Positions 40,112 to 58,131 of a stretch of DNA of 64,000 nucleotides are shown here, in pieces. Within the stretch, counting starts at the first letter, position 1. The number at the start of each line of letters is the position of its first letter. The position numbers and the translations under genes are program-made. This DNA comes from a virus, in the IMG/VR virus record IMGVR_UViG_3300045988_175656. One strand, 5' to 3'. Below the pieces are notes generated by a model that did no database searches, was not told the DNA's origin, and saw only the letters and a program-made list of their open reading frames with translations.

Positions 40112-40112
40112 T

Positions 40113-40909: not shown

Positions 40910-40918
40910 GATACAGTA

Positions 40919-41095: not shown

Positions 41096-41167
41096 ATCAT
41101 ATAATCTTTAATTGTTTAATGCAAAGGTAAGCATTTAAAACTTACCTTGCAAATTTTCAGTGATTAT

Positions 41168-42579: not shown

Positions 42580-42595
42580 TGTTCCACGTGAAACA
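42580..42595 (+). promoter_or_regulatory. TGTTCCACGTGRAACA palindrome, copy 1
   Basis: TGTTCCACGTGAAACA, 8 nt before the ATG at 42604. Confidence 0.55.
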
Positions 42596-42603
42596 ATTTA
42601 GTT

Positions 42604-42867: not shown

Positions 42868-42918
42868 AAAAAAAATTAACTTGTTTTCAATTGCTATTGA
42901 TTTTAAATTAATACATAA

Positions 42919-43029
42919 TAGTTAGGGCTTGTGAAAGTCTTAACTATTTTTTTAATTTTTTAACTAAAAAAGTTAATATCTGTTGGAGACTATACTCTAT
43001 ATTATTACATATACCTTTTTATTTTTTCT
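42919..43029 (-). ncRNA. UAUAGUCUCC-element, copy 6 (stand-alone unit, antisense to the plus arm)
   Basis: Leftward promoter TTTG(43066-43063)-20nt-TACATTTG(43042-43035). RNA reads GG-UAUAU-GUAAUA-AUAUA-GAGUAUAGUCUCCAA (core 42983-43015). It runs into the 12-bp hairpin 42919-42946, which also terminates 42604..42867. Confidence 0.6.
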
Positions 43030-43240
43030 TTATACAAATGTAAGCATTATATTTGATATATGCAAATTATTATCTAATTATTTTCTCTAAATTAAGTTTT
43101 ATTAATACAAAAATTGTTTTGTGTTAATGAATAATAAAAGAAAGTGCAAATGTATTGTAGTCTCAAATAAAGTTCTTATATTTGCAGTGTTGAAAGACAA
43201 AAGAATAAATTATATAATCAAACATTTAAAAATTATAGTT

Positions 43241-43921: not shown

Positions 43922-43943
43922 CTTTAAATATTGTTAATTAATT

Positions 43944-43985
43944 AAAGAAAGTCTGCTATCTGTTTGGATATGTCAGACTTTCTTT
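43944..43985 (+). terminator. 12-bp hairpin overlapping the next promoter spacer
   Basis: AAAGAAAGTCTG-N18-CAGACTTTCTTT. The 3' arm runs into TATCTTTG (43987-43994). Confidence 0.6.
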
Positions 43986-44000
43986 TTATCTTTGTATATC

Positions 44001-44096
44001 GAAAATAAAAAAGTAATAGTAAAATATTAGAGTATAGTCTCCAACAGGTAAAATATAAAACTGTTAATGAATGTGAATTTTTTAATAATCATTAAC
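44001..44096 (+). ncRNA. UAUAGUCUCC-element, copy 7
   Basis: RNA reads AGU-AAUA-GUAAAA-UAUU-AGAGUAUAGUCUCCAA (to 44046), followed by the hairpin GTTAATGA/TCATTAAC (44063-44096). Confidence 0.6.
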
Positions 44097-44176
44097 ACAA
44101 AAATATATCAAAAAATTAGGTTCGTATTGAAATAAGCCTTATCTTTGCACATATCAAAATTAAAAACAATAAAGTT

Positions 44177-44428
44177 ATGAAAACAATTCAAGAAGTATTA
44201 AATATTATTGCTACATCTGATTTAATAATGTATGCAGTTAATTACATTGATTTGATAGATGAAAATGTACCTAATACGAATGCAAGTATCGTTTTAAATT
44301 TTAGGTATAGTAATATAAGTTTGTTATTAATGAATGAAATTTTGAATATCATTCTTACAAACGGTTTATCTTATAATATGGATATTGATAATAAGATAAT
44401 GTATATATACTATAAAATAGAAAAATAA
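44177..44428 (+). CDS. hypothetical protein
   Basis: ORF track. Confidence 0.6.
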   Translation: MKTIQEVLNIIATSDLIMYAVNYIDLIDENVPNTNASIVLNFRYSNISLLLMNEILNIILTNGLSYNMDIDNKIMYIYYKIEK

Positions 44429-44554
44429 ATTAATTAATATTCTTTAACACAAAATATTTGGTGGCTATAAAAAAAGTCCTTATCTTTGTAACATCAAAAT
44501 AAGAGAAACCAAAACAATTAAAAATATAAATTTAACAATTAAAAATTTGAAGTT

Positions 44555-45469
44555 ATGAAAAAGAATGAACTTAAAGTTAGCGTGATTATCGAAAATGGTA
44601 TGGTAAGAAAAGAAATGGTAGAAATCTTTTACAGTGAAGATTATGATTTGTTAAACAATTTCGATGGCAACCGTTTAGGTAGTGACGAACAAAAAGAAAG
44701 CGGAAATTATTCTGCAAACGAAATAAAGGCTTTTGATAGTCGTGTTAATAAACTTGTTGCATCTATGCAAAAACGTATTGCAGACGGAAAAGAGGGTTTT
44801 GACAAAAATTTTCCTATACTTGTTGCAGTCATAGACGGTAAAAAAGTAAACATAGACGGACAAGGTAGAAAAGCTGCTTGTAAAAGGTTAGGTATCGGTT
44901 TTTGGTATCGTATATTAGACCAAAAGTTTGATACAATGAAAGATTTGATTAATTATACTATCTCAATAAATACCACTGCATCAAGCTGGAAAATTACTGA
45001 CAAATATAAGGCTTGGGCGATTGCAAATGACCGCAAAGACTTGTTAGAAATTATGCTTGATTGTACAAAAAAATTTGACATTGCAGAAAATTTAACATTA
45101 ATGGTTCTGTTCAAAAATCAGAATGTTTGCAAAAAGAATAATTTCAACATTGACAATATTAAAATTAAAACATATACAGAACAAGCAAAAATCGACTTGT
45201 ACGAAATTTTGAATTTCAGACAAGAATTGATTAACGCAATAAAAGGTTTGAGAGATAGTGAAGGACACAAAGTAGCTATCAAGAAAGAAGAATGTTTGCA
45301 CGCTATTGTAAATTTTTATTGCCAAAATAGCAAACTTAATCGCACAATTGCGGTAAAATATGTGGCTGAATATTATCAAAAAAGCGATATGAAAATTTTT
45401 ACCGCCAATACTACATTATTTGAAAAATTTTTAAATCGCTGTGCGCTTAATCATGATGAAAAGATTTAA
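44555..45469 (+). CDS. ParB/Srx-like N-terminal domain protein
   Basis: FPILVAVIDGKKVNIDGQGRKAACKRLGIGFWYRIL fits the ParB-like nuclease-domain core (P..V....g...iDGqHR..A...LG). Confidence 0.55.
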   Translation: MKKNELKVSVIIENGMVRKEMVEIFYSEDYDLLNNFDGNRLGSDEQKESGNYSANEIKAFDSRVNKLVASMQKRIADGKEGFDKNFPILVAVIDGKKVNIDGQGRKAACKRLGIGFWYRILDQKFDTMKDLINYTISINTTASSWKITDKYKAWAIANDRKDLLEIMLDCTKKFDIAENLTLMVLFKNQNVCKKNNFNIDNIKIKTYTEQAKIDLYEILNFRQELINAIKGLRDSEGHKVAIKKEECLHAIVNFYCQNSKLNRTIAVKYVAEYYQKSDMKIFTANTTLFEKFLNRCALNHDEKI

Positions 45470-45498
45470 ACTTCATAACTTTAATTTTTGATTGAAAA

Positions 45499-45534
45499 AG
45501 GGAGTACTAATAAAAAAAGTACTTCCTTTTTTAC
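45499..45534 (+). terminator. intrinsic terminator after 44555..45469
   Basis: GGAGTACT-N9-AGTACTTCC hairpin, followed by TTTTTT. Confidence 0.6.
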
Positions 45535-45552
45535 ATTTATTAACACAAAATA

Positions 45553-45584
45553 TTTGGTTCGTATTGATAAAAGCATTATCTTTG
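45553..45584 (+). promoter_or_regulatory. Bacteroidota-type promoter
   Basis: TTAACACAAAATATTTGG motif, with TTTG (45553-45556), a 20 nt spacer and TATCTTTG (45577-45584). Confidence 0.6.
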
Positions 45585-45633
45585 TCATATCAAAATAAGA
45601 GATAATAAGTTTAACAATTTAAAAACTAAAGTT

Positions 45634-45828
45634 ATGAATAGAATTAAATTTTTTGGTAGTGTTGGTATGGTAATGTTTATCATGTGGTTGTGCTTTTGGA
45701 TGTTTGGCGGTTGGTATGTGAAAGGTAGTTTTGAAACATTCTCCTATATTTGGTTAGGTGTTTGTGTGGCTGTTTTAGTCGCTGTTAATAGCAAATTAAC
45801 TAAGATACATAAAGAGATAAGCAAATAA
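45634..45828 (+). CDS. small membrane protein
   Basis: Two hydrophobic helices. Confidence 0.6.
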   Translation: MNRIKFFGSVGMVMFIMWLCFWMFGGWYVKGSFETFSYIWLGVCVAVLVAVNSKLTKIHKEISK

Positions 45829-45884
45829 GTAGATAATTCAAGGTAGGGCAAATAAATAAGCCCTACCAATAAAATATAAAAGTT

Positions 45885-46235
45885 ATGAGTAAAAAATTCA
45901 AGTTATATGCAACAATAAAAGAAAATGTAGGCTATCAGTCTAATTTGAATAATAATAGAGACAGTTATAACAATGCGCTTTTCTTACTTCGTGGAAAAGA
46001 AATTGAGATAGAGACAGACTATTTGTTTCTTAATCAGTTAAACACTGCACCAATTAAAGATATTAGTAAGAACGGTTTAAGATTATATTTTAATGATATT
46101 AAGTCTTTAAGAATAGAAAACCGTACTTTTCGCACTATTAAAATGAGAGTGAAAAAGTTTTATAAAAGTGCTTGGGATGTTGATATTAAAGAACAACAAC
46201 TTAAAGGATATAAACTTTTATTAGGAATTAATTAA
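45885..46235 (+). CDS. hypothetical protein
   Basis: ORF track. Confidence 0.65.
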   Translation: MSKKFKLYATIKENVGYQSNLNNNRDSYNNALFLLRGKEIEIETDYLFLNQLNTAPIKDISKNGLRLYFNDIKSLRIENRTFRTIKMRVKKFYKSAWDVDIKEQQLKGYKLLLGIN

Positions 46236-46292
46236 TTCTTATTAACACAAAATATTTGGTAGGTATTGAAAAAATACCTACCTTTGTTGTGT

Positions 46293-46335
46293 AAGAAAAA
46301 AGTAGGGGTAATATTCTAAAGTATAGTCTCCAACA
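46293..46335 (+). ncRNA. UAUAGUCUCC-element, copy 8
   Basis: Promoter TTTG(46255-46258)-20nt hairpin spacer-TACCTTTG(46279-46286). RNA reads AGU-AGGG-GUAAUA-UUCU-AAAGUAUAGUCUCCAA. Confidence 0.6.
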
Positions 46336-46470
46336 GGTAAAATATAAAATTGTTAATAAATGCAAAAATTTTAATATTATTTAACATAAAAAAGTATTGA
46401 AATGTTTTGGTGTATCGAATATTATTCGTACATTTGCATATCGGAAATACAGAAATAAGTTATTAACCAT

Positions 46471-46486
46471 TGTTTCACGTGGAACA
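46471..46486 (+). promoter_or_regulatory. TGTTYCACGTGGAACA palindrome, copy 2
   Basis: TGTTTCACGTGGAACA within the leader, 17 nt before the ATG at 46504. Confidence 0.55.
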
Positions 46487-46503
46487 ATTAAAAATTTAAA
46501 GTT

Positions 46504-47034
46504 ATGGGTAATGTTTATTACATGGATAAAGAAACATTTGTTTTGAAAAGCAAACAACAAATTTTGGTTTATAATTACATGATTGAAGATTTAAAAAACA
46601 TTCTTCCAATTGTGCAAAAATTTGACCAAAGGTTTTTAACCAAAAGATTAACTACTGCAATAGAAAAAGTTTTGAAACATTGCATAGTTAGTTTACACGC
46701 TGATAAAATAAAAATCAGCATACAAGGAGAGTTAAGATACGTTAAAGGTGGTGGCTATATTGAATGGGACAGTTACGATATAGATTTAGATGTTAATAGA
46801 CTTGGTTGGTTGTTAAATTCTGAAAAAAGTATTGAAAACATTCAATCGACTATTAATTACTTTGAAAAACAGATTAACGAATACCAACTATGTATCACTA
46901 ACTATGATGAATTTGTTAATAAACGTTTAGAAATTGAAAAACAAATTGAAGAATACCAAAAACTTGTGCCTTATTGTATGCGAACAGGTTTTAGTGTATA
47001 TGGTACTAAATATTATATAGATGAAATAAAATAA
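46504..47034 (+). CDS. hypothetical protein
   Basis: ORF track, 176 aa. Confidence 0.7.
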   Translation: MGNVYYMDKETFVLKSKQQILVYNYMIEDLKNILPIVQKFDQRFLTKRLTTAIEKVLKHCIVSLHADKIKISIQGELRYVKGGGYIEWDSYDIDLDVNRLGWLLNSEKSIENIQSTINYFEKQINEYQLCITNYDEFVNKRLEIEKQIEEYQKLVPYCMRTGFSVYGTKYYIDEIK

Positions 47035-47045
47035 AAGTTAAAATA

Positions 47046-47077
47046 TTTGCAAAGGTAGATTTTATTTTCTACCTTTG
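47046..47077 (+). promoter_or_regulatory. promoter with 11-bp hairpin in the spacer
   Basis: TTTG(47046-47049)-20nt-TACCTTTG(47070-47077). GCAAAGGTAGA and TCTACCTTTGC form the arms. Confidence 0.6.
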
Positions 47078-47123
47078 CATAAACAATAAAAAACTAAAGT
47101 TTTATTTTAAAGCGTTTTAAAAC

Positions 47124-47507
47124 ATGAAAAAATTATTATTTAATACATTATCAAGACAAACAAAAGAGCTTGAAAAAACGGCTAAAAATGCTATTTTAGC
47201 CTTATTAAATGAGATACCAAACAAAACATATCAGACTGATAAAATAGACGAAGAAAGAAATATAACAACCTATGATAATGAAAAATTTGCTTTTGTAGGC
47301 TGTTATATTGATAAAACAAAAGGCACATTTACATATAATCTACATGATGGGTTAAAGTTATTAGGCTATAAAATAATAAATGATAATGATATGATAAGCG
47401 AAATATTATACAATAAACTGTATGAAATAGAGCTTTTTAATATTGATAATATTCAACTATTAAACGTTATAAAATACATCAATGAGATAGAATTTTCTGA
47501 GGATTAA
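47124..47507 (+). CDS. hypothetical protein
   Basis: ORF track. Confidence 0.65.
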   Translation: MKKLLFNTLSRQTKELEKTAKNAILALLNEIPNKTYQTDKIDEERNITTYDNEKFAFVGCYIDKTKGTFTYNLHDGLKLLGYKIINDNDMISEILYNKLYEIELFNIDNIQLLNVIKYINEIEFSED

Positions 47508-47526
47508 GATTTATTAACTCAAATAA

Positions 47527-47558
47527 TTTGCAAGGTACGGATGTTCTTCGTACCTTTG
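47527..47558 (+). promoter_or_regulatory. promoter with hairpin spacer
   Basis: TTTG(47527-47530)-20nt (GGTACGgatgttctTCGTACC)-TACCTTTG(47551-47558). Confidence 0.6.
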
Positions 47559-47600
47559 TTGTATCAAAATTAAAGTACTAACAATTAAAAAATTAAAGTT

Positions 47601-47765
47601 ATGAAAAAGTTAAAATCTATTGAGCTTTACAGAAATTTTCCAGTTATAGACCAAAAACAAAATTCTAATTTTATTTTAAAATTATTTCCTTTTTTCTTTC
47701 AGAAATTAAAAAAAACAATGTGGATAGAAATACCTTTTGTTGGCGTTAAAATAGTAATTAATTAA
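47601..47765 (+). CDS. 54-aa hypothetical protein
   Basis: Unlisted ORF MKKLKSIELYRNFPVIDQKQNSNFILKLFPFFFQKLKKTMWIEIPFVGVKIVIN, with a full canonical promoter and the GTACTAACAATTAAAAAATTAAAGTT leader. Confidence 0.45.
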   Translation: MKKLKSIELYRNFPVIDQKQNSNFILKLFPFFFQKLKKTMWIEIPFVGVKIVIN

Positions 47766-47793
47766 TATTATTAACGAATAATAACATAGAATA

Positions 47794-47825
47794 TTTGGTA
47801 GGGAACGGAAATTTCCCTACCTTTG
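47794..47825 (+). promoter_or_regulatory. promoter with hairpin spacer
   Basis: TTTG(47794-47797)-20nt (GTAGGGAAcggaaaTTTCCCTAC)-TACCTTTG(47818-47825). Confidence 0.6.
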
Positions 47826-47868
47826 TATTATAAGAAATAAGAAGTACTAACAATTAAATTTTAAAGTT

Positions 47869-48084
47869 ATGGGATGTTTAAATGTTAAAAAGTATAACGC
47901 TATGCAAGCGGAACGGGAACAAGAATTTTTAAACAAGTTAGACCGTACAGGATTAACAGAAACAGATATTAAAAAAATGTGTGAAAGCTACTTTCCACGT
48001 ATTAACAAAAATTATGGCTTTGTTACGTTTGATAACAGAACTTGTGCAACTGAAATTCATTGGCACAAAAGAAAACCTTATTAA
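47869..48084 (+). CDS. hypothetical protein
   Basis: ORF track. Confidence 0.6.
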   Translation: MGCLNVKKYNAMQAEREQEFLNKLDRTGLTETDIKKMCESYFPRINKNYGFVTFDNRTCATEIHWHKRKPY

Positions 48085-48141
48085 CAACAATTAACTCAAA
48101 TAATTTGGTGGGGAAAGAAATTTCCCCTATCTTTGTAATAC

Positions 48142-48191
48142 AGAAAAGGAAACAAAGGTATAAGTAACATTATAGAGTATAGTCTCCAACA
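48142..48191 (+). ncRNA. UAUAGUCUCC-element, copy 9
   Basis: -7 box TATCTTTG (48128-48135). RNA reads GG-UAUAA-GUAACA-UUAUA-GAGUAUAGUCUCCAA. Confidence 0.6.
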
Positions 48192-48339
48192 TATTTAATA
48201 TAAAATAGTTAAAAAATACTAATTAAATTAATAATTTTTAATACAAAATAATTTGTAAAATACTTGCATAATTGAAATATTATCTATATCTTTGTATTAT
48301 CAAAATTAAGAAGATTACTAACAATTAAATTTTAAAGTT

Positions 48340-48624
48340 ATGGCAAATTTCATTTTTCTTAAAAACGACTCTTATAATAGTCCCGTAGTTGCAAAATTGG
48401 CTGTTATTGAAATAGAAGGTGACTATGATTGGTGGCACATTAAAACACGCCCTATCAAGGCTACTAAACGAAATATAGAGCTTTTAAAACTCTATGCAAG
48501 AGAGAACACAACAGATTATATGTGTTGTGAATACGATTGCACAGGTAGCACTAAAAGAACATATAAAGTAAAAGTTAAAAAAGGTAAATGTTGGTTAATT
48601 GAATATGGTAGTGTAGATTGCTAA
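48340..48624 (+). CDS. hypothetical protein
   Basis: ORF track. Confidence 0.65.
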   Translation: MANFIFLKNDSYNSPVVAKLAVIEIEGDYDWWHIKTRPIKATKRNIELLKLYARENTTDYMCCEYDCTGSTKRTYKVKVKKGKCWLIEYGSVDC

Positions 48625-48700
48625 CATTTATTAACATAAATAATTTGGTAGGTATCAGAGAAATACCTACCTTTGTTTCAAACAATTAAAAAGAATAGTT

Positions 48701-48976
48701 ATGGAAGAAAAAATTAAACAATTTGTTAAACAGCTAAATGAAAAATATCCCGAATATGTAACATCATACACACAAGGGAAAAAGTTTTACAAAATATGGA
48801 GAACATTTGGCGTGCAGAAATGTATCTATTGTTTTGTAGATATGGACGGAAATATTTACAAAGCTGCAAGTATTAACGCACCCGCAAAACATATTAGAGG
48901 GCACATTTCAGAACCTTTTAAAGACAATTGTTGCGGACGTTACGGAATTAAGTATTTAAAAGGTCCTAACTTCTAA
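48701..48976 (+). CDS. hypothetical protein
   Basis: ORF track. The FVDMDGNIYKAASINAPAKHIRG motif is of a type common in phage hypothetical proteins. Confidence 0.65.
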   Translation: MEEKIKQFVKQLNEKYPEYVTSYTQGKKFYKIWRTFGVQKCIYCFVDMDGNIYKAASINAPAKHIRGHISEPFKDNCCGRYGIKYLKGPNF

Positions 48977-48985
48977 TTAAGTTTA

Positions 48986-49101
48986 TTAACATTTGGTGAA
49001 GTGTAGTAGCCAAATGTTAATTTTTTTAATATTTTTTAACTAAAAAAATATAGATGTGTTGGAGACTATACTCTAAGATATTACTCTTACCTTTTTTATT
49101 A
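48986..49101 (-). ncRNA. UAUAGUCUCC-element, copy 10 (stand-alone unit, antisense to the plus arm)
   Basis: Leftward promoter TTTG(49138-49135)-20nt-TATCTTTG(49114-49107). RNA reads GGU-AAGA-GUAAUA-UCUU-AGAGUAUAGUCUCCAA (core from 49059). It ends at the shared 11-bp hairpin TTAACATTTGG/CCAAATGTTAA (48986-49020). Confidence 0.6.
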
Positions 49102-49273
49102 CATTACAAAGATAAGAATAATTTCTTTAAGTACCAAATATTTGATTAATTTTTATTGTTCATTAACACAATATAGTTTTAAAGTTAATTTTGTGTTAAA
49201 GATAGAAAAATACTTGTTTGGTATTGATATAATTCATACTTTTGTGCATATCAAAATTAAAAGCAATAAAGTT

Positions 49274-49546
49274 ATGAAAGCAAAAAATTACATTCCGCAA
49301 ATTTCTGTTTATTACAGTGAGAGAAACTATAATGACTATAATAACGCTATACAACAAGCTATAAAGCGTTTTAAAGAGTTTTATTCCCGTTTTGATAAAA
49401 GACTACTCACAACAAAGAAAAAAGTTAATGTGAACATAAAAGGGCACATTTTAAATGTGAATATTGACTTTAATAAAGTACATTATTCACAATGTTATGA
49501 GATAGTAAACTATAACGAAATAAAAGGGCTACAAATCAATTATTAA
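49274..49546 (+). CDS. hypothetical protein
   Basis: Start trimmed to MKAKNYIPQ (ATG 49274), which follows the ATCAAAATTAAAAGCAATAAAGTT leader. Confidence 0.6.
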   Translation: MKAKNYIPQISVYYSERNYNDYNNAIQQAIKRFKEFYSRFDKRLLTTKKKVNVNIKGHILNVNIDFNKVHYSQCYEIVNYNEIKGLQINY

Positions 49547-49550
49547 AGAT

Positions 49551-49799
49551 ATGGCACGAAATATAAGTCTTTCAACCGTAGAGAAAATTTTTAATAATTT
49601 AGGTGATGTTAAATTAGAACCTAAAGTTTATAAACAAATTGAAAAAGAATTACGATTTGAGGGGAGAGATAAAAGGTTTGATTTATTTGTTGAGGCTGGC
49701 ACAAATAAATCTATGCTCTTTAAGTTTATGAAAAAAAGATACTATGTTTACTATGATTACAGTATTAATAAGTGGAAAGCTGAATATAATATAAGATAA
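49551..49799 (+). CDS. hypothetical protein
   Basis: ORF track. Confidence 0.6.
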   Translation: MARNISLSTVEKIFNNLGDVKLEPKVYKQIEKELRFEGRDKRFDLFVEAGTNKSMLFKFMKKRYYVYYDYSINKWKAEYNIR

Positions 49800-49917
49800 A
49801 ATAATACTATGTTAATTTATAGTTAAATATAGGAAAATATTTGTTTGGTATTAATTTAATTCTTATCTTTGTACTATCAAAATTAAGGAAATTATTAACA
49901 ATTAAAAAATAAAAGTT

Positions 49918-50424
49918 ATGGCAATATTCGGAAATTTCGTAGGTAAAAAAGATTTAGAATTAACAAACGAAGAAAAAGAAATGTTTATGAATTTCTTCAA
50001 AATGAAACTTTTTAACTATCATAATTGCAATTTTGAAAAGGTATTAACAATTCAAAATGTAAAAGAAGAGTGTTATACAACTTTTACAGATTTTAAATCA
50101 TATTACTTTATTTTCAAGCCAAAAGAAAGTTTAAATGGGAGAAACGTTAAAAGAGATAGAGTTATTGATTTTTCGGGTATTTCTTTTATAATTCGCAAAG
50201 AAAGCGGTTTTTTAGAGATAAAAAATAAAGAAGAAAATATAAATACGCCCGAATTTCAATATTCTTTAAATATCCTTATTCAAGGAAAACAAATAAGGTA
50301 TAAATGTAGAAATATAGAAAGTATTTCTTTAAAAAATTCGTTTCAATTTGGTACTGAATTAAGCGATTTCGATTTTTCAGCTACTTTCTATGACTTATAT
50401 AGAACACTTTATGGCTTATATTAA
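49918..50424 (+). CDS. hypothetical protein
   Basis: ORF track, 168 aa. Confidence 0.7.
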   Translation: MAIFGNFVGKKDLELTNEEKEMFMNFFKMKLFNYHNCNFEKVLTIQNVKEECYTTFTDFKSYYFIFKPKESLNGRNVKRDRVIDFSGISFIIRKESGFLEIKNKEENINTPEFQYSLNILIQGKQIRYKCRNIESISLKNSFQFGTELSDFDFSATFYDLYRTLYGLY

Positions 50425-50441
50425 TTAAAAATAAAATAGTT

Positions 50442-50636
50442 ATGAAAGAAAAATATTTTATAGTTGTAAACGAAACAAAGAAAGAAATATACTTTGCGTC
50501 TAAAAATCAATTCAGAGCACAACATTTTACAAAATTCATTTACCAAAAATATGATAAACATGTTTCCTGTGTGCCACGTTATTTGACGCAAAAAGAAATT
50601 GAAATGTATAAAGATATAATCAGTAAGAGAGGTTAA
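50442..50636 (+). CDS. hypothetical protein
   Basis: ORF track. Confidence 0.6.
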   Translation: MKEKYFIVVNETKKEIYFASKNQFRAQHFTKFIYQKYDKHVSCVPRYLTQKEIEMYKDIISKRG

Positions 50637-50646
50637 AATAAATAAA

Positions 50647-50761
50647 ATGTTAAGAATTTGACTGTTCTTAACATTTTTTAACTTATTTTTATATATAAAA
50701 AATAAAGCATAACGGAGACTATACTTTAGAATATTACTTCTACTTTTTCCCCCTTTTGGAA
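50647..50761 (-). ncRNA. UAUAGUCUCC-element, copy 11 (stand-alone unit of about 115 nt)
   Basis: Leftward promoter TTTG(50798-50795)-20nt-TATCTTTG(50774-50767). RNA reads AGU-AGAA-GUAAUA-UUCU-AAAGUAUAGUCUCCGU (core from 50713). A bidirectional terminator hairpin, ATGTTAAGAA/TTCTTAACAT, lies at 50647-50674. Confidence 0.6.
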
Positions 50762-50931
50762 CACTACAAAGATAAGAAGAATATTTGAAACTAACAAATT
50801 TATTCCAATGATTAACATTTAATTAACTCTTAAAACGTATTGTGTTAATCAATATTAATAAATCACGTTTTATTTGGTAGATATAAAATTAATTCATATA
50901 TTTGCAATATCAAAATTAAAACAAAGAAGTT

Positions 50932-51402
50932 ATGGAAAAGAATTTAGAGTATTACAGAGAACAATGTCAAGAAATTGCAAACATGATTGCAAATGAAGTT
51001 ACGGACGCAAAAAGTGTTAAAGTTGATTGTGGCGGCTTTTGTCCTTACTTGTGCTTTATTAGAATAGACGCACTTGACAAAAAAGATTATATAAATAATA
51101 TATCAAATAATAGTATCTTTATAGATATTAAAATAGACTTTCAAGAAAATAAATTTGAACTGTTTAGAGATGGACACATTTACCTATCACCAAAGGATAA
51201 AAAAACACCACAATTTAAATATTTAGCTATGCGTGGTATGATTAATATTGCAGAAGAAAAAGGAGTTAAAAAAATGCGTAAAACAAAGCATAAAGACAAT
51301 AAAACAACCGCTAATAAAATAGCTCTTTACTTCAATGAAGTTATGAAAGCTGTAAAAGAATATACAGGCGGTTATCCTTACAGACAAGGAATCGAAGAGT
51401 AA
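50932..51402 (+). CDS. hypothetical protein
   Basis: ORF track, 156 aa. Confidence 0.7.
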   Translation: MEKNLEYYREQCQEIANMIANEVTDAKSVKVDCGGFCPYLCFIRIDALDKKDYINNISNNSIFIDIKIDFQENKFELFRDGHIYLSPKDKKTPQFKYLAMRGMINIAEEKGVKKMRKTKHKDNKTTANKIALYFNEVMKAVKEYTGGYPYRQGIEE

Positions 51403-51483
51403 TTAACATTTATTAATACAAAAAATTTGGTAGGAATGAAATAATTTCCTACCTTTGTATCAAACAATTAAAGATAACAAGTT

Positions 51484-51702
51484 ATGGATAAAGAAAAAAT
51501 TATTAATAGTATTTGTATAGCTTGCAGAGCTACACAAGGCGGTACTTTAAAGTTTGGTACAGGCGGTTTTGTAGATTTTTCTGTAAGTTGGGATTATCAA
51601 TGTAATTTTGACATTTTTAATCTTAAAACAAAAAAACATCACTTTTGTAGCACTTTAGGCACAGCCGTTGAAATTGTTGAAAAATTATTAACAGAAATAT
51701 AA
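51484..51702 (+). CDS. hypothetical protein
   Basis: ORF track. Confidence 0.6.
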   Translation: MDKEKIINSICIACRATQGGTLKFGTGGFVDFSVSWDYQCNFDIFNLKTKKHHFCSTLGTAVEIVEKLLTEI

Positions 51703-51721
51703 CATTTATTAACTCTAAAAA

Positions 51722-51753
51722 TTTGGTGATATGAGATAAAAGTCGTACATTTG
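51722..51753 (+). promoter_or_regulatory. Bacteroidota-type promoter driving an ORF-less unit
   Basis: TTTG(51722-51725)-20nt-TACATTTG(51746-51753). Confidence 0.6.
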
Positions 51754-51759
51754 TAATAA

Positions 51760-52176
51760 AGAAATACAACTAACAGAAAAAGAGATTAAGTATTAATTTT
51801 AATAATGTCTAAAAATGGAAACAAATAAGCCACCGCCCTAAAAAGGTTATTTAAATTTGATAATATAAGATAGAATAATTTAATAGCTACGAAAACTAAC
51901 AAGGTACGCAAGTTTAAAGAGTAAAAAGTTTTAGAACGTACTGCATTAAGCGAAAAAGCTATGCCACCACAGTATTAAGTTTATAACATTATAATATATA
52001 GAGTAATTTAATTTATATTTAATTTTAACTTTCCGCTGTTTGCGGACTAAAAACATAAGTATGCACTTAATTAGAGATAAGACCATATAAAAATTATATG
52101 TAATATAGAATGAATTTATAGATTAAGAAAATAAGGCAAAAGCTCTGATAATACCGTCATTTATCAGAGCTTTTTT
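51760..52176 (+). ncRNA. candidate long ncRNA of about 415 nt
   Basis: A canonical promoter precedes it and no ORF exceeds about 9 codons. It has locally GC-richer patches and nested helices: ATAGCT(51883-88)/AGCTAT(51957-62) encloses GTACG(51904-08)/CGTAC(51937-41). A CCGC-TGTT-GCGG hairpin is also present. It ends at the strong terminator AGCTCTGATAA-N8-TTATCAGAGCT plus T6 (52141-52176). Confidence 0.45.
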
Positions 52177-52258
52177 AATTACAGTTTTTAACATTTTTTA
52201 TAAGTACGTGACGGAGACTATACTTTAAAGTTTTAACCTTACCTCTTTGTTTTTCTTA
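52135..52258 (-). ncRNA. UAUAGUCUCC-element, copy 12 (stand-alone unit of about 120 nt)
   Basis: Leftward promoter TTTG(52295-52292)-20nt-TATCTTTG(52271-52264). RNA reads GGU-AAGG-UUAAAA-CUUU-AAAGUAUAGUCUCCGU (core from 52212). It converges on the same terminator hairpin, 52141-52170. Confidence 0.6.
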
Positions 52259-52428
52259 CACTACAAAGATAAGGATAATAATTCAATCTACCAAACATTA
52301 TTTCAGTTTTAACATTACTTTAACACAAAATACTTAATATGTTAATATTGTGTTAAAGATATGATATTACTTGCATATATGAAAAATAACATATATATTT
52401 GCAATATCAAAATTAAAGTAATAAAGTT

Positions 52429-52869
52429 ATGATTGGAAAAGATAAAAGTTACATTAAAAGTAACGAGATTACAGAAATAAAACTAAAAGCGTTTAGAAGC
52501 TCTTTTTCAAAGGATATTATTCTTTGTGGGGAAAGTATTACAGATAGACAAAAAGTATCTCAAAAGTGCTTAGATTATCTCTGTGATAAATTTAAAATTG
52601 AAAAGGTGAAACTAACAGTTTTAAATAAGCCACAAAGAAAAAAAGCAAATGGCAAAACTTTAGGTTTTTATACTGTTGGGAGAAATCATATCACAATATA
52701 TAATCTAACAGCCACCACACAAAAAACTGTATCTATAAAAACTTTTTACGATACATTATTACATGAATTTATGCACCACTATGACTATAAAGTTTTAAAA
52801 CTTGAAAACAGTCTGCATACAAGCGGTTTTTATCAAAGAATAAGCGACTTAAAAAATAAATTGCAATAA
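52429..52869 (+). CDS. HExxH Zn-metallopeptidase-like protein (SprT-like pattern)
   Basis: TFYDTLLHEFMHHYDYK contains HEFMH, preceded by a basic region. Confidence 0.55.
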   Translation: MIGKDKSYIKSNEITEIKLKAFRSSFSKDIILCGESITDRQKVSQKCLDYLCDKFKIEKVKLTVLNKPQRKKANGKTLGFYTVGRNHITIYNLTATTQKTVSIKTFYDTLLHEFMHHYDYKVLKLENSLHTSGFYQRISDLKNKLQ

Positions 52870-52965
52870 AAACATTTATTAACACAAAAAATTTGATTAT
52901 TAAAGAAAAACACCTTATCTTTGTAACATCAAAATAAGAGAATTAACAATTTAAAAATTAAAGTT

Positions 52966-53091
52966 ATGGAAATAGAATTATTAAAGAAAGCAATTTATAT
53001 CAGAACTAAAAAGTTTTCAATTTGGTTCGGATGGCTATCATTCTCAAAAAATGATTGTTTTATACCAACATTCTATTTTAATAAGTTGTAA
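52966..53091 (+). CDS. 41-aa micro-protein
   Basis: Unlisted ORF MEIELLKKAIYIRTKKFSIWFGWLSFSKNDCFIPTFYFNKL, with a canonical promoter and the ATCAAAATAAGAGAATTAACAATTTAAAAATTAAAGTT leader. Confidence 0.4.
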   Translation: MEIELLKKAIYIRTKKFSIWFGWLSFSKNDCFIPTFYFNKL

Positions 53092-53110
53092 CATTTTAAA
53101 TTTTAAAGTT

Positions 53111-53425
53111 ATGTTATATAGTGGTGAAACCGTTTTTTTAAAAAGTACTGATAATGCAAAAGCAAATGTACTCTGCAAGCAAGTTAATAAACTGACAGCA
53201 AAAAAATTATATGATAAGGGAGTTAAAATTTGGTTACATCCTTGCAATTTAACGCTTAATAACGTTTGGCAAGTGCCTTATCATTTCCAAAAAAGCGAAA
53301 CAAATACTGAATGTTTTGATAGCCTTGTTAATTCTTTTAGGTGGTATAATTGTGACAGACAGAGAGGTAAAAGAATTATTTTCTTTGCCGAATGTGATAA
53401 AATGGGAAAATTACTTCATTCTTAA
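53111..53425 (+). CDS. hypothetical protein
   Basis: Start trimmed to MLYSGETVF (ATG 53111), which follows TTTTAAAGTT. Confidence 0.6.
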   Translation: MLYSGETVFLKSTDNAKANVLCKQVNKLTAKKLYDKGVKIWLHPCNLTLNNVWQVPYHFQKSETNTECFDSLVNSFRWYNCDRQRGKRIIFFAECDKMGKLLHS

Positions 53426-53436
53426 AAACTGACAGT

Positions 53437-53583
53437 ATGACAAACATATTATATATAGGGCTATTTACAGCCCTTTTAATAGCACTTTTTTTCTTTGCAA
53501 TGAAAGTATTATCTAAGCAAAGAAAAGCTAACAGAGAGGAAAAAACTCGCTTTATTTGGGCGAATATAAGATATAAAACATAA
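53437..53583 (+). CDS. 48-aa single-pass membrane peptide
   Basis: Unlisted ORF MTNILYIGLFTALLIALFFFAMKVLSKQRKANREEKTRFIWANIRYKT. Confidence 0.4.
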   Translation: MTNILYIGLFTALLIALFFFAMKVLSKQRKANREEKTRFIWANIRYKT

Positions 53584-53742
53584 CTTTAGATTTATAGAAC
53601 TTAATTTTGATGAAAAAATGCACCCGTTTGTGAAAATAGGTGCATTTTGCTTTTATTAACACAAATAATTTGTATATGATAAATAAATCGCTTATCTTTG
53701 TAATATCAAAATAAGAGTACTAATAATTAAAATTTTAAAGTT

Positions 53743-53928
53743 ATGATACATTTTAATTCTCATCCAGAAGTAATAAATATTACAGCAGCCACTAATGCTA
53801 ATCAGATAACAAAAGAATACTATGATTTTTTAGTAGGAGAAATTAATAGAGGTACAATAAAAAAAGCTGTTTGTCGTATTGAGAATGAAGTATTTGGTAC
53901 AGTATCTTATCATTTAATATCATATTAA
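53743..53928 (+). CDS. hypothetical protein
   Basis: ORF track; canonical leader. Confidence 0.55.
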   Translation: MIHFNSHPEVINITAATNANQITKEYYDFLVGEINRGTIKKAVCRIENEVFGTVSYHLISY

Positions 53929-53978
53929 CATTCATTAGTGATAATAATTTGTATATTCAAAATTAAAAATTTAAAGTT

Positions 53979-54251
53979 ATGGATAATAATTTACAAGAAT
54001 TTAGATTTAATACAGGTGTAAAAGTATATAGTTTTTGTCCTCCAGTTCCTTGTGTGGGTGAATATCAAATTGTAGACGGAAACGGAGTTAAAATAATTTT
54101 GTTTTATTGTACTGATGTTCCGAAAAATGCTACTTTCTTATTTGCTTGCGATACGCCTAATTTAGACAAAGCAAAAGAAAATAATGTGATAGTAAGGGAA
54201 ATTATAAAAGGTGGCTTATGTTCCAAATATGCTTATTTTAAAACTTATTAA
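53979..54251 (+). CDS. hypothetical protein
   Basis: ORF track. Confidence 0.6.
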   Translation: MDNNLQEFRFNTGVKVYSFCPPVPCVGEYQIVDGNGVKIILFYCTDVPKNATFLFACDTPNLDKAKENNVIVREIIKGGLCSKYAYFKTY

Positions 54252-54338
54252 CACAAAATATTTGGAACATATCAAAAAAATACCTATCTTTGTAATATCA
54301 AAATTAAAGAAGTTACTAACAATTAAAAATTTAAAGTT

Positions 54339-54539
54339 ATGAAAAAATTTCAATTAAGTTTTCAAGCAAGAAAGATTAATGCAATCGGAATTGTTTACAA
54401 TAACTCTGCAACTGTGGTTGCAGATAATTTACAAGAAGCAACAAATTATCTTTACACAATCTTTGAGCATATAAAAGATATAAAAATTGTGAAAAAAACT
54501 AAAACAAATATGGAAAAGGGAATTGTTAAACATAGTTAA
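54339..54539 (+). CDS. hypothetical protein
   Basis: ORF track; the last gene with the canonical leader. Confidence 0.6.
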   Translation: MKKFQLSFQARKINAIGIVYNNSATVVADNLQEATNYLYTIFEHIKDIKIVKKTKTNMEKGIVKHS

Positions 54540-54545
54540 AAAAAT

Positions 54546-54561
54546 TGTTCCACGTGGAACA
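54546..54561 (+). promoter_or_regulatory. TGTTCCACGTGGAACA palindrome, copy 3 (perfect)
   Basis: Perfect 16-nt palindrome 7 nt after the stop of 54339..54539, abutting the C-tract island. Confidence 0.6.
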
Positions 54562-54640
54562 CCCCCTACATGGGGGCTACCCCCGTAACCCCCCACTCCG
54601 TTCCCCCTACCTTGAAGGGGTGGGTAAAACAGGGAACGGT
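54562..54640. other. C/G-tract island in otherwise AT-rich DNA
   Basis: Tracts are C5 (54562-66), G5 (54572-76), C5 (54580-84), C6 (54589-94), C5 (54603-07), G4 (54617-20), G3 (54622-24) and G3 (54632-34). It also contains the CCCCC-TACAT-GGGGG hairpin and the pair CCGTTCCC...GGGAACGG. Confidence 0.8.
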
Positions 54641-54851
54641 CTGGAAAATGAAATTTTTTTGGTCCAGAAAATTTTTATTTTTCGTAAATGCCTAAAAATC
54701 TAATTTTAAATTTCACATTTTTTAAAATAAAAAATGGCTTTTCAAAAAAATTTTCCAGAAAATTTTTTAGCTTTTTAAAAAAGGTATTATTTTATTTTTG
54801 CTAATTTATAAAAAAAAACGTATATTTGCAAAAAAAAAATGAGATTATATT

Positions 54852-56729
54852 ATGATAAGAATATTTGAGCATATAAAAAGTGATTATACCTATTACATAG
54901 ATGAAAATACATTTAGTATTTTTAAAAAAAGAAAAAATGGGTCATTAAAAGAAATTGGAACTAAAAAAAGTAAATATGGTTTAACTGTACAATTACATAT
55001 TTTTTATGACGAAAAAATAAAAAGATGCCGTAATAGGAATGTTTATCTGCATACTATTGTTGGGGATTATATTTTTAAAGCAAGAAAGAAATATGTTATA
55101 AATTATAAAGATAATGATATATATAACTGCACAAAAGAGAATATATACATTACATATTTGTGTGATTTAAACAGAAAATGGAATAAGTTAAAGAATAAAG
55201 AATCTACTTATTTATCTGATAATGGTGATGTTTATTATGAACCTTATAAATGTTTTCTTTCGCCATCATTTGATATTACTGGTTATGCATATTTCTATAT
55301 TAATGGTGAAAACATAAAACGTTCCCATCTTGTATGGAAATATTTTGGTAATGAACCATTTAAAGATGGCTATGTTGTTGACCATATTGATAATAATCCA
55401 TCTAATGATGACATTAATAATTTGCAGTTAATAACAATTAGGGAAAATATTATTAAGGATTTGCACAAAAAATCAAATTTGCCAACTGGTGTGCGTAAAG
55501 AAGGTAACAAGTATAAATCTTATATTGGCTATACTATGGATGGGGTATATCATGAAAATATATACTTAGGTGTATTTGATACAATCGAGTTAGCAAGTGA
55601 TTGTTATCAAAGGGCATTATCTTTAGTTGAGAATGGTATTAATCCCATAAAAAGTGGTGACAATAAAGATATTAAGTATAAATTTTCTGTTGATAAATGG
55701 TATTATAGATTGCCATCAAATAATGGTAGAGACAAATATTTTGGTGATTTTGATTCTTACGACAAGGCATTAGAAAGTTATAACAGTCACATTGATATAT
55801 TTAAACAATTTTTTAATGAGACAGATGAAGAAAAAGCAATAAGGAAAGGTAATTTTTCTTTCAAATATAATGGTGTATCATATATGATATGCAAACGCAA
55901 ATATGGTGATATTGAATTTATTAATGCACTCAATTATTATAAAAAATGCAAAAAGAATTGTAATGTTCAAGAATTTATAAACAGCATTCCATTGATAAGA
56001 GAGAAAATATATAATGAGCACAATAAAATTTATGAGTCATTAAAGAAGAAAAAGAAAGAAGAAGCAGCCATTAAATATGCTAAACTTTTAAGAGAAAAAA
56101 AGATTGAAAAGTTAAAGAAAGAATCTTTTAAAGATATAAAAGATGAATTAGATTCTATTAATGAGTTTTTAAAAGAGTCGAAAATGATTGAATTTATGAA
56201 TAAACCTAATTATATTCAAAATTCTTATAATGATTGTTATACAATAAATGTCCCATACAAAGATGGTAAATATTACTATTTACACAGTTTCAAAAACAAA
56301 GAAATAGTAGATGAAATAGATAATATAATGAATGAATATAAACAATCAGATAATTTCATAAATTTATTCAATGATTTTAAAAGTAATAAACTTCTATCAT
56401 ATATAGAAAAAGACAATGTTTATAGGCAACAAATTGAATCTCAAAAGAAGAACAAATTAGGTTATTATTATTTGCCAAAAAAAGATTTATATAGAGTTAA
56501 AAAACATTTAAATAACAAAGAATATGTATTAGGTTATTATAAAGATGAAAGATGTTGTAAATATATTTTAGATGAATGTAATAATGCAATAAAATTGGGT
56601 ATATTTTCTACATGGTATAAAGATATAGAAAAACATAAACTTCGTGTTAGAAATATGTTTAATGATTTAACTTTAGTCAGAAGCAGGAACATAGCATCTA
56701 ATAATAAAAAATATTTAGAATTACCTTAA
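54852..56729 (+). CDS. free-standing HNH homing endonuclease with AP2-type DNA-binding repeats
   Basis: The HNH_3 core is HLVWKYFGNEPFKDGYVVDHIDNNPSNDDINNLQLITIRENI. The AP2-like unit is LPTGVRKEGNKYKSYIGYTMDGVYHENIYLGVFDTIELASDCYQRAL. Further degenerate units follow (KWYYRLPSN...YFGDFDSYDKALESY and GYYYLPKKDLYRVKKH...VLGYYKDERCCKY). Confidence 0.8.
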   Translation: MIRIFEHIKSDYTYYIDENTFSIFKKRKNGSLKEIGTKKSKYGLTVQLHIFYDEKIKRCRNRNVYLHTIVGDYIFKARKKYVINYKDNDIYNCTKENIYITYLCDLNRKWNKLKNKESTYLSDNGDVYYEPYKCFLSPSFDITGYAYFYINGENIKRSHLVWKYFGNEPFKDGYVVDHIDNNPSNDDINNLQLITIRENIIKDLHKKSNLPTGVRKEGNKYKSYIGYTMDGVYHENIYLGVFDTIELASDCYQRALSLVENGINPIKSGDNKDIKYKFSVDKWYYRLPSNNGRDKYFGDFDSYDKALESYNSHIDIFKQFFNETDEEKAIRKGNFSFKYNGVSYMICKRKYGDIEFINALNYYKKCKKNCNVQEFINSIPLIREKIYNEHNKIYESLKKKKKEEAAIKYAKLLREKKIEKLKKESFKDIKDELDSINEFLKESKMIEFMNKPNYIQNSYNDCYTINVPYKDGKYYYLHSFKNKEIVDEIDNIMNEYKQSDNFINLFNDFKSNKLLSYIEKDNVYRQQIESQKKNKLGYYYLPKKDLYRVKKHLNNKEYVLGYYKDERCCKYILDECNNAIKLGIFSTWYKDIEKHKLRVRNMFNDLTLVRSRNIASNNKKYLELP

Positions 56730-56747
56730 AATATTGTTGAGAACTAA

Positions 56748-56769
56748 AAAGACACTACTTAGTGTCTTT
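56748..56769. terminator. bidirectional terminator
   Basis: AAAGACACT-ACTT-AGTGTCTTT lies between the convergent genes 54852..56729(+) and 56777..57322(-). Confidence 0.65.
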
Positions 56770-56776
56770 TATCTTT

Positions 56777-57322
56777 TTATAATATTGGCATTATTTTTTC
56801 ATTTATGAAATTTGTAAAAGTTAGTTTTGATTCTTTATATTGTTTATATAATTGTTTCTTTTGTTTGAGTGTTAACTTTTTGAATATTTTCCATTCATCT
56901 GTGCCATCTTTATGAATTATATTATAATTGTTATCATATTGATGTGCATATGCTTCCAGTTCAAATTCAATAAATTTATATGGCATTTTAATTCCGTTTA
57001 TAATTGGTAAGTTTTTAAGGTATAGCCAAATATAATGAAGATAATATAATATCCATGAATTATGGCATTTAATTGCTTGTTTAACGTGTGTCATTTCATG
57101 ATTTTTATCATCTTCATTTCTTCCTTTTTCTTCATCTTTTACCCATCTATCATACGTTTTCTTTCTAATGTATATATTTCCAAAGAAACACATTAATTTA
57201 CTATTATTAAATGGGATGAAATTATTCACTATTAATTTCATTTCCGTTATTTGACTAGGCTTTTTCATGTTAATTACAATTTTATCATAAATATTTGTGT
57301 TATGATTAATATAAATTAACAT
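56777..57322 (-). CDS. HExxH metallopeptidase-like protein (DUF4157-like HE.THV.Q motif)
   Basis: KNHEMTHVKQAIK resembles the HE(L/M).HV.Q signature of DUF4157. An alternative start MKKPSQ is at 57268. Confidence 0.55.
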   Translation of the reverse strand: MLIYINHNTNIYDKIVINMKKPSQITEMKLIVNNFIPFNNSKLMCFFGNIYIRKKTYDRWVKDEEKGRNEDDKNHEMTHVKQAIKCHNSWILYYLHYIWLYLKNLPIINGIKMPYKFIEFELEAYAHQYDNNYNIIHKDGTDEWKIFKKLTLKQKKQLYKQYKESKLTFTNFINEKIMPIL

Positions 57323-57387
57323 TGATTATTTGTGGCTTTTATTTTTTGTTTATATCTTTGTGTCATAATTAAAAAATATATAATTAT

Positions 57388-57630
57388 ATGGACGAAAAAT
57401 TAAAGAGATGTATTGAGGTGTTAGTACATTATGTATATGACACATATGACGGTAATGAATCTGAAATATACACATTATCTTATTATTACATGTATATTAA
57501 TAAAGTTAATGATATTGAAGGTTTATTGGCTTGTTTTGTACAAGCTATAATAGATGTAACAGATAAAGAGTTTTCTGATGTATATAAGAAAATAGTTAAT
57601 CATCCACAAATTAAAAAAGTATTATTTTAG
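57388..57630 (+). CDS. hypothetical protein
   Basis: ORF track; promoter TTTG-20nt-TATCTTTG at about 57331-57362. Confidence 0.6.
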   Translation: MDEKLKRCIEVLVHYVYDTYDGNESEIYTLSYYYMYINKVNDIEGLLACFVQAIIDVTDKEFSDVYKKIVNHPQIKKVLF

Positions 57631-57711
57631 TTAACATTTTTTATAGAAATAAATTTTGTATATTAAAAAAATAGTTTTATATTTGCACAATAAATTTAAA
57701 AAAGGTATAAC

Positions 57712-58131
57712 ATGGAAAAAATTTTCATATTGAGTCAGATTGTTTCTGTATCTCTTTACAAGACAGTGAACCGTAGTGATTTATTTAAATGGGTAAAGAA
57801 AGAGAAATACAAAGGTTTTCTTTTTTGGAGAAAAAAGATTGAGTATTATGAATGGAATGATGGTACCAGTAGTGATTTTCTTAGTGAAAGATATGCTACT
57901 GATGAAGAATTATTGAATTATTTTAAAACTTATATCGGAAGGGATGATTTATTCATTAAGGATAAGGTATTATATCAGAAACCTTATGTGAAGTTAATTT
58001 TATCTAATGACACACATTTGAATAAGGTATTTGAAGATGATATTCTTGCAGAGCAGTATTATGTTTCTGTTCAGGCTGAATTAAGTCGTTGTGGTATTCC
58101 TTATAGAGATTTATCAAAAGATTTGTTTTAA
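57712..58131 (+). CDS. hypothetical protein
   Basis: ORF track; TATATTTG box near 57680. Confidence 0.65.
   Translation: MEKIFILSQIVSVSLYKTVNRSDLFKWVKKEKYKGFLFWRKKIEYYEWNDGTSSDFLSERYATDEELLNYFKTYIGRDDLFIKDKVLYQKPYVKLILSNDTHLNKVFEDDILAEQYYVSVQAELSRCGIPYRDLSKDLF

Follow-up and report, generated by a model that had tools for sequence, protein, structure and literature searches.

A conserved proline mini-ORF and a covarying helix in a promoter-to-terminator unit of a Bacteroidota jumbo phage

What is a phage transcription unit that has a promoter and a terminator of its own and, between them, no gene of ordinary length? The question is raised by about 415 nt of a 64,000-nucleotide stretch of viral DNA (IMG/VR record IMGVR_UViG_3300045988_175656; this whole stretch is called the window hereafter). 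The window is part of a phage contig of about 380-391 kb, and the flanking proteins have exact copies on contigs of 380-391 kb. The first-pass annotation had described a discrete promoter-to-terminator unit without a conventional gene, which our analysis bears out, and had proposed that it encodes a structured long non-coding RNA. We have analyzed the unit in five sequence types from two phage clades, by computation throughout.

Setting and anatomy of the unit

The window has a G+C content of about 25% and its genes are nearly all small; they form two divergent transcription arms, with a GC skew that flips near 42 kb. A 496-aa product is distant kin of proteins from other jumbo phages. Megablast and blastn searches of a set of 50,697 phage records left the unit unmatched, and the sole DNA similarity to cultured phages linked the promoter of a neighboring element to intergenic DNA of a Bacteroides fragilis phage. 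About 65 near-identical TTTG-N19-21-TAnnTTTG sites, which we take to be promoters of the Bacteroidota type, stand ahead of almost every gene, usually with a TTAAC box on their 5' side and a gene 25-50 nt on their 3' side. A sigma-70 scan of the same DNA returned 72 sites for 59.6 expected, that is to say little excess.

Some features of this genome are worth recording here. The distal minus-arm genes display Shine-Dalgarno sequences of the AAGGAG type (window 1-42000, minus arm), whereas such sequences are missing from the small genes near the point of divergence, which share a common leader, ..ACTAACAATTAAAAATTTAAAGTTATG (compared in the plus arm at 42000-58000 and in 33000-42000). The sole tRNA of the window is a tRNA-Leu(CAA) at 39909-39994 on the minus strand. 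At 28880-29004, also on the minus strand, another consensus promoter is found without any ORF of at least 25 codons within 200 nt (only MNIRYKIGF*), the next promoter coming about 125 nt later.

The unit starts with a promoter at 51722-51753 on the plus strand, composed of a -33 TTTG, a 20-nt spacer and a -7 TACATTTG. This is an exact match to the TTTG-N20-TACATTTG consensus, with a TAACATTTATTAAC box upstream from 51700, so that the initial description of the promoter as canonical holds: it has the full consensus and is one of the roughly 65 of the window. It is 90% identical in the homologous locus L010. At the other end lies a bidirectional intrinsic terminator (52138-52176, acting on both strands), with a perfect 14-bp stem (AAAAGCTCTGATAA / TTATCAGAGCTTTT), a loop of 9 nt, a T run for each direction (T6 for the plus and T4 for the minus strand) and flanking A and T runs. 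The T6 run had been correctly noted, as had the sharing of the terminator with a converging, promoter-driven element on the minus strand, but the stem is of 14 bp and not 11 bp. A simple terminator scan missed it because loops were limited to 8 nt. The structure has all the marks of Rho-independent termination, namely a stable hairpin, a U run and a stem maintained in relatives, with two compensatory pair changes in L010/L147. We also observed that the loop (52152-52160) is exactly inverted between haplotypes in L003/L007 (TACCGTCAT versus ATGACGGTA) while the stem is the same, a hairpin flip-flop inversion.

Between these two signals, about 385 nt after the promoter are devoid of any ORF longer than 9 codons. 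The ATG-initiated ORFs of the plus strand between 51754 and 52137 comprise 7, 8, 5 and 9 codons, in agreement with the earlier statement that no ordinary ORF follows the promoter. A recoded gene had been envisaged as well. We translated the unit with genetic codes 4 and 15, where TGA and TAG are reassigned, and no hidden ORF appeared under either: most of the stops are TAA, whichever frame is read, and reassigning TGA or TAG therefore opens nothing. ORFs of 41 and 46 aa exist on the minus strand and are disrupted in homologues. A protein-coding gene, standard or recoded, is thereby ruled out by ORFs of at most 9 codons, TAA in all frames and indels among relatives that are not multiples of three.

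Known RNA families did not account for the unit either. In a scan of the whole window against Rfam 15 at gathering scores, the tRNA at 39910-39994 alone passed; with E values up to 10, the region 51600-52450 gave noise only, the best hit reaching 20.9 bits for a threshold of 70. ARAGORN returned no tRNA or tmRNA match in the unit. These scans confirm the earlier impression that it matches no tmRNA, RNase P, 6S RNA or riboswitch. The families of Rfam 15 (tmRNA, 6S, RNase P, GOLLD, ROOL, HEARO and riboswitches) are comparable to it in size range and in phage context, but none of them reaches it at the gathering score.

Conservation and RNA structure

Near-identical copies of the unit (91-100% identity) are found in L001-L009 and L149, and a more divergent one, with 74% identity to the window, in L010/L147. 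In the latter the upstream genes have been replaced or remodelled, and the unit, the small repeated element that follows it and a gene for a SprT-like protein are still linked. Homologues of the SprT-like protein and their contigs led us to a second clade, consisting of L150, L213/L214 and L219 (the last from a metagenome scan), in which this protein is only 61% identical to that of the window. There, a 300-400-nt ORF-free stretch occupies the same place and ends in hairpin-plus-T-run terminators of its own, unrelated to that of the window (L150, L213). The L150/L213 clade has no such promoter, the unit following a 50-aa gene that is unrelated to p72, the upstream neighbor in the window. The unit is thus found in both phage clades, where the small repeated element and the SprT-like gene invariably lie downstream of it. 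The SprT-like gene of the window has a promoter-like site of its own, a TTG-started repeat at 52371-52420 without a complete -33 TTTG.

When the units of the two clades are aligned globally, the score exceeds that of mononucleotide shuffles by 4.5 s.d. As MAFFT could not align the clades, helices were counted across them on an ungapped register anchored on the flanks. A covariance model built from the window clade found the helix H/H2 module of L150 (see below) with an E value of 6 and missed L213. Since this model does not significantly recover the second clade, the relationship between the clades rests on synteny, on the anchored helix and on the mini-ORF described below. Wider searches added little. 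A 14-mer scan of IMG/VR gave chance matches only, an 18-mer scan retrieved only the four contigs found before, and all 61 matches of a two-block scan were due to chance; when the two blocks were anchored on the mini-ORF, IMG/VR gave one chance match and the metagenomes 83 matches, one of them genuine (L219). More distant relatives of the SprT-like gene (L011-L023, L151 and L300-L319) have no unit. In one of them (L151:1480-1640), the SprT-like homologue is preceded by a terminator and then by an ORF-free, G+C-richer segment of about 150 nt that ends in a CCCCCC...GGGG hairpin and has no detectable kinship to the unit. The unit is also missing in L148 and L212 and carries an internal deletion in L214; it is therefore accessory.

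No part of the locus is less conserved than the body of the unit (51750-52049), whose identity to L010 is 0.53-0.76, with many indels, versus 0.82-0.96 for the flanking genes and 0.84-0.92 for the adjacent intergenic element. One could thus assume that the unit is the decaying remnant of one or several former gene cassettes, now only a spacer or 3' UTR that separates the terminal gene of a transcription block from its terminator, with conserved islands that are mere relics. Fast evolution, absence from L148 and L212 and truncation in L214 would suit such a remnant, and so would some vestiges of gene organization: a promoter-like repeat inside the unit (51853-51875, resembling 51719-51741), a ATATAGARTAATTTAAT motif repeated three times, and an ACTAACA motif in the 5' leader of the kind typical of gene leaders. 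We nevertheless hold this explanation to be unlikely. A tblastx comparison of the region with all loci revealed no intact relative of any frame, and the unit remains linked to the SprT-like gene while the genes upstream are replaced. Moreover, neutral decay would not preserve a helix by compensatory changes, nor an 8-codon frame with synonymous variation only, across clades whose neighboring protein is just 61% identical; both are documented below.

We then considered the RNA fold. The minimum free energy of the unit is hardly different from that of shuffled sequences (z = -1.6 on the plus strand, where 6 of 100 shuffles are as stable, and -1.1 on the minus strand). A large structured RNA would also be expected to show several covarying helices, and here only helix H and the terminator change on both sides, other predicted pairs being invariant, broken or deleted. 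The notion of a structured long non-coding RNA thus has only partial support: one internal helix is kept in relatives by compensatory changes, within a fold that stays in the range of shuffles and a body that is the least conserved of the locus.

RNAalifold, applied to seven sequences, retained helix H, an abutting hairpin termed H2, a CCGC hairpin and the terminator. Helix H (51903-51942, plus strand) pairs GGUACGC (51903-51909) with ACGUACU (51936-51942) around a U-rich loop of 26 nt. With the register set by conserved flanks (5' AAG and 3' GCA), 56 of 63 cells from nine haplotypes pair; sliding one strand by 1-3 nt lowers this to 8-35 of 63. Both partners have changed in each of pairs 2 to 7, and the G-U intermediates would be C-A mismatches on the other strand, which makes the signal specific for the plus strand. 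Judged from this covariation, helix H is convincing. The nested complementary pairs reported earlier were thus half right: the inner GTACG/CGTAC is real and covaries, but the outer ATAGCT/AGCTAT is not kept. This outer helix was rejected as a conserved structure, its pairing being lost in L010/L147.

A conserved AAAACTAACAAG box (51892-51903, plus strand; also written AAAACTAAC or AAAACUAAC) lies immediately 5' of helix H and is near-invariant in both clades. A possible pseudoknot would join AAAACU of the AAAACTAACAAG box to AGUUU(U) at the start of the helix H loop. Because the box shows little variation, this candidate leaves no covariation signal; a C-to-U change in the box of L010 would, as read from the sequence, retain a G-U pair. 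Hairpin H2 (51943-51964, plus strand; GCAU-UA-AGC GAAAAA GCU-AUGC) abuts helix H. In the window clade its stem is invariant and its loop alone varies, and its 3' arm holds an AUG; a different hairpin (GUCA-AGRUA-UGAC), again with an AUG, is found at the same place in the L150/L213 clade. The CCGC-UGUUU-GCGG hairpin (52033-52045, plus strand), which forms one of the GC-rich patches, was discarded as a conserved structure since it is deleted in L010/L147.

From these elements, one would also wonder if the unit produces a trans-acting or otherwise structural RNA, whose helix H/H2, candidate pseudoknot and C-rich single strands would bind a protein or target RNAs, any mini-ORF being incidental; this amounts to a weaker version of the initial proposal. 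Six of the seven pairs of helix H covary with plus-strand-specific G-U pairs, the AAAACTAAC box hardly varies, both clades have a hairpin directly next to helix H, and a unit with its own promoter and terminator and no match among known families could represent a new one. This explanation seems to us doubtful, as the fold is no stabler than shuffles, the body evolves faster than every flank, and L214 has lost the region of helix H while keeping the first mini-ORF and the terminator. A scan of the window for targets complementary to the C-rich motifs gave only noise. In addition, the variation of the C-rich motif has a period of 3 nt and is synonymous, which a motif recognized at the RNA level does not predict.

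Proline mini-ORFs and proposed function

Three GC-rich patches had been put forward as an indication of structure. All three are present (51827-51838, 51958-51972 and 52031-52047), and the first reaches 9 G+C in 12 nt, a level surpassed at a single other place of the plus arm (54572-54600). Two of the three turn out to be in-frame proline codons of ATG-initiated mini-ORFs, which weighs against their use as evidence for structure.

The first patch, AAGCCACCGCCC, corresponds to codons 5-8 of mini-ORF 1 (51815-51841, plus strand), which forms the conserved core of the unit and reads ATG GAA ACA AAT AAG CCA CCG CCC TAA (METNKPPP*). Mini-ORF 1 is present in all five sequence types and both clades, with the consensus M-x-x-N-K-P-P-P(-x-x)-stop over 8-10 codons. 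Its variants are METNKPPP*, METNKPPPKR*, MAKNKPPPKG*, MNNNKPPPTK* (with CCT CCC CCG) and MNSNKPPPII*. The distance from the ATG to the prolines is fixed and free of indels, while codons 2-3, the tail after the prolines and both flanks vary freely. Within AAT AAR CCN CCN CCN, all four variable sites are third positions and all are synonymous; by our own arithmetic, such an outcome has a chance of 5/1365, or about 0.004. No second instance of this pattern is found in the window or among the other loci compared (about 215). The start context of mini-ORF 1 scores above 90-92% of non-start ATGs and at the low end of true starts, and there is no Shine-Dalgarno sequence.

The second patch corresponds to mini-ORF 2 (51961-51978, plus strand), ATG CCA CCA CAG TAT TAA or MPPQY*, whose AUG is the one held by hairpin H2. 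It reads MPPKY* in L003 and L010. Mini-ORF 3 (52061-52090, plus strand; MHLIRDKTI*) lies inside the block with the highest nucleotide conservation, TAATTAGAGATAAGACC; it has a poor start context (8th-35th percentile), and its translation is doubtful. The peptides of mini-ORFs 2 and 3 are not conserved between clades: the other clade has MTTRSPTK* or MTTRASP* in place of the former, and further mini-ORFs MIRDKP* and MARASP*. The MIRDKP* of the L150 clade (..CGA GAT AAG CCC TAA) differs in position from mini-ORF 3.

These prolines stand out against the ORFs of the window. In 130 of these, proline makes up 1.7% of the residues, with only 8 PP and 1 PPP in 15,880 codons, and CCC and CCG are rare. 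In the body of the unit, CC dinucleotides fall in frame as proline codons of ATG-initiated mini-ORFs far in excess of expectation. Every one of the five lineages shows this (binomial p between 2e-4 and 2e-2; the observed count is attained by 1-3 of 2000 shuffles), a significance that is overstated as the patches are not independent.

The constraint on the C-terminal N-K-P-P-P, together with a free N-terminus and a tail that is free or absent, is what marks a nascent-chain or stalling element, as opposed to a folded peptide. Elongation and termination are at their slowest on polyproline stretches and where a stop codon follows proline, and there they depend on EF-P and prolyl-tRNA. Considering the constraint on NKPPP in the light of this knowledge, we therefore favor, tentatively, the possibility that the unit is an RNA acting through translation of a polyproline-stalling mini-ORF, in the manner of a leader peptide or a minigene. 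We infer that the unit is transcribed into an RNA of about 415 nt with 77% A+U, which would also serve as the 3' terminal part of transcripts reading through from the genes upstream. Ribosomes engaged on mini-ORF 1 would meet three consecutive proline codons followed, in the window variant, by the stop codon, and a nascent chain of only 8 residues would favor peptidyl-tRNA drop-off. The RNA would act via this stalling. Like a leader peptide, it could sense the translation status and thereby decide what becomes of its own RNA; or else, like a minigene, it could tie up ribosomes, tRNA-Pro or rescue factors. What is kept under selection is the 5'-proximal mini-ORF 1, helix H with the small hairpin holding a second AUG, and the terminator, and not the global fold. 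Two precedents are on record. EF-P-dependent polyproline pauses in leader peptides have been reported to alter the coupling of transcription and translation (PMC5021804). Minigenes of 3-8 codons sequester tRNA, and very short ORFs promote peptidyl-tRNA drop-off (PMC2490762).

Several findings argue for this stalling mini-ORF: L214 keeps mini-ORF 1 though it has lost helix H, coding by a long ORF is excluded, and no strong global fold exists. Against it, the sample is limited to five sequence types from two clades, the link between the clades consists of synteny and short motifs, the start context is at the low end of true starts, mini-ORFs 2 and 3 differ as peptides between the clades, the covarying helix H is left without a role, and L148 and L212 lack the unit. 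An RNA with a dual function is possible. One could also imagine that the conserved product matters in itself, the unit being an mRNA from which micropeptides (one or several, METNKPPP for instance) are released to act in trans on a target of host or phage origin. N-K-P-P-P is under selection at the peptide level and more proline-containing mini-ORFs are present, but a length of 8-10 residues, free positions 2-3 and an unconstrained tail of 0-2 residues fit stalling better. No signal or processing features are seen, and the other mini-ORFs are not conserved as peptides; we regard released micropeptides as very unlikely.

A parallel can be drawn between the stalling mini-ORF and several known systems, with which the unit would belong as a new variant: leader and arrest mini-ORFs, minigenes and small phage RNAs. 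An example of a leader peptide with proline codons is mgtP, in the leader of the Salmonella mgtCBR operon. Like mgtP and the polyproline constructs (PMC5021804), the unit has a very short 5' ORF with conserved consecutive proline codons in a long untranslated RNA, and stem-loops downstream. As expected of a leader or arrest peptide, mini-ORF 1 is a short ORF whose critical codons are under coding-type constraint. On the other hand, the classical attenuation scheme does not apply, because no structure overlaps mini-ORF 1 and no regulated cistron follows in the same transcript, where one finds instead the terminator and then the converging element. No conserved pairing involves 51815-51860, nor did we find an alternative pairing overlapping or adjacent to the mini-ORF; helix H starts 62 nt after its stop codon in the window and more than 120 nt after it in the L150 clade. 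The unit also differs from the proline-codon leaders in belonging to a phage of Bacteroidota and, in one clade, in having its mini-ORF in the 3' trailer of a gene.

Phage lambda provides a second comparison, with its bar minigenes of two codons preceded by a Shine-Dalgarno sequence. Toxic minigenes, be it those of lambda or others of 3-8 codons (PMC2490762), share with the unit a phage ORF of few codons, and the drop-off or tRNA sequestration predicted for the unit would, as in their case, be set by the last codons. Unlike lambda bar, the ORF of the unit has 8-10 codons, no Shine-Dalgarno sequence, and an NKPPP under purifying selection. Among arrest peptides, TnaC ends in a proline followed by a stop, SecM and ErmBL are further examples, and the cat/cmlA leaders have 8-9 codons. 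Mini-ORF 1 resembles them by its size, its variable N-terminus and the constraint on C-terminal residues, which would sit at the peptidyl-transferase center; it has no sequence similarity to them, and the unit comes without an identified ligand or regulated cistron. Finally, SgrS/SgrT and RNAIII/hld encode peptides of 26-43 aa in RNAs with defined base-pairing targets. They are, like the unit, discrete RNAs with their own terminator that combine a small ORF with conserved structure, but the peptide size and the targets set them apart from the unit.

A bolder hypothesis would be that a Bacteroidota jumbo phage encodes a dedicated polyproline minigene RNA, which stalls host ribosomes and so senses or manipulates the translation capacity of the host (EF-P, tRNA-Pro, ribosome rescue) early in infection. 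Its context consists of the further mini-ORFs ending in proline and of a phage proteome nearly free of polyproline; we consider it doubtful. If the mini-ORF is translated and does stall, the phage would encode an RNA of the stalling or minigene kind that is maintained by selection, as opposed to an incidental one. Such an RNA, in a host phylum with unusual translation initiation, would offer a handle on how huge phages sense or tune the translation of their hosts. If it is the RNA module that matters instead, helix H and the AAAACUAAC box would make a small new RNA motif. The case also calls for some caution in genome scans, as GC-rich patches in an ORF-free transcript of a very AT-rich genome can be the proline codons of conserved micro-ORFs instead of RNA helices.

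The repeated element and other neighboring features

The converging element that shares the terminator (52213-52295, minus strand; promoter 52264-52295, core 52213-52222) always adjoins the unit, without being part of it, and is copy 12 of a family of 12. It had been stated that every neighboring slot holds a protein gene, which is incorrect: 12 other promoters of the window drive this short ORF-less element. Each copy, with the core TATAGTCTCC, stands directly behind its own consensus promoter. The cores start at 44033, 46322 and 48178 on the plus strand and at 52222, 50723, 49070, 42994, 42082, 38345, 36943, 35880 and 34100 on the minus strand. The element consists of a 5-bp stem with a GUAAUA, GUAAAA or GUAACA hexaloop, followed by AAGUAUAGUCUCC. 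When homologues from L150, L011 and L213 are included, all 75 cells pair, with compensatory changes in four of the five pairs, and the covariation score was reached by none of 500 shuffles; Rfam has no match. The element thus looks like a multi-copy family of small structured RNAs of these jumbo phages.

Comparison of L148:850-1170 with window 50640-52260 shows that a 156-aa gene, a 72-aa gene and the whole unit are missing from the former. The junction falls within the core sequence of the element, between the copy at 50723 and that at 52222, and the repeated elements therefore appear to be recombination points for the loss of cassettes.

Farther downstream, a 625-aa ORF with an HNH_3 domain and its own promoter (54852-56729) is present in L001 and L003 and absent from the otherwise collinear L002, a polymorphism typical of homing endonucleases. 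Next to it, at 54545-54640, the G+C content reaches its maximum for the plus arm (up to 10 of 12 nt) in an island with several hairpins (GTTCCACGTGGAAC; CCCCCTACATGGGGG), which is found whether or not the adjacent HNH gene is there. In L002, the G-rich GGGGTGGG of this island is replaced by the C-rich CCCCCCTT.
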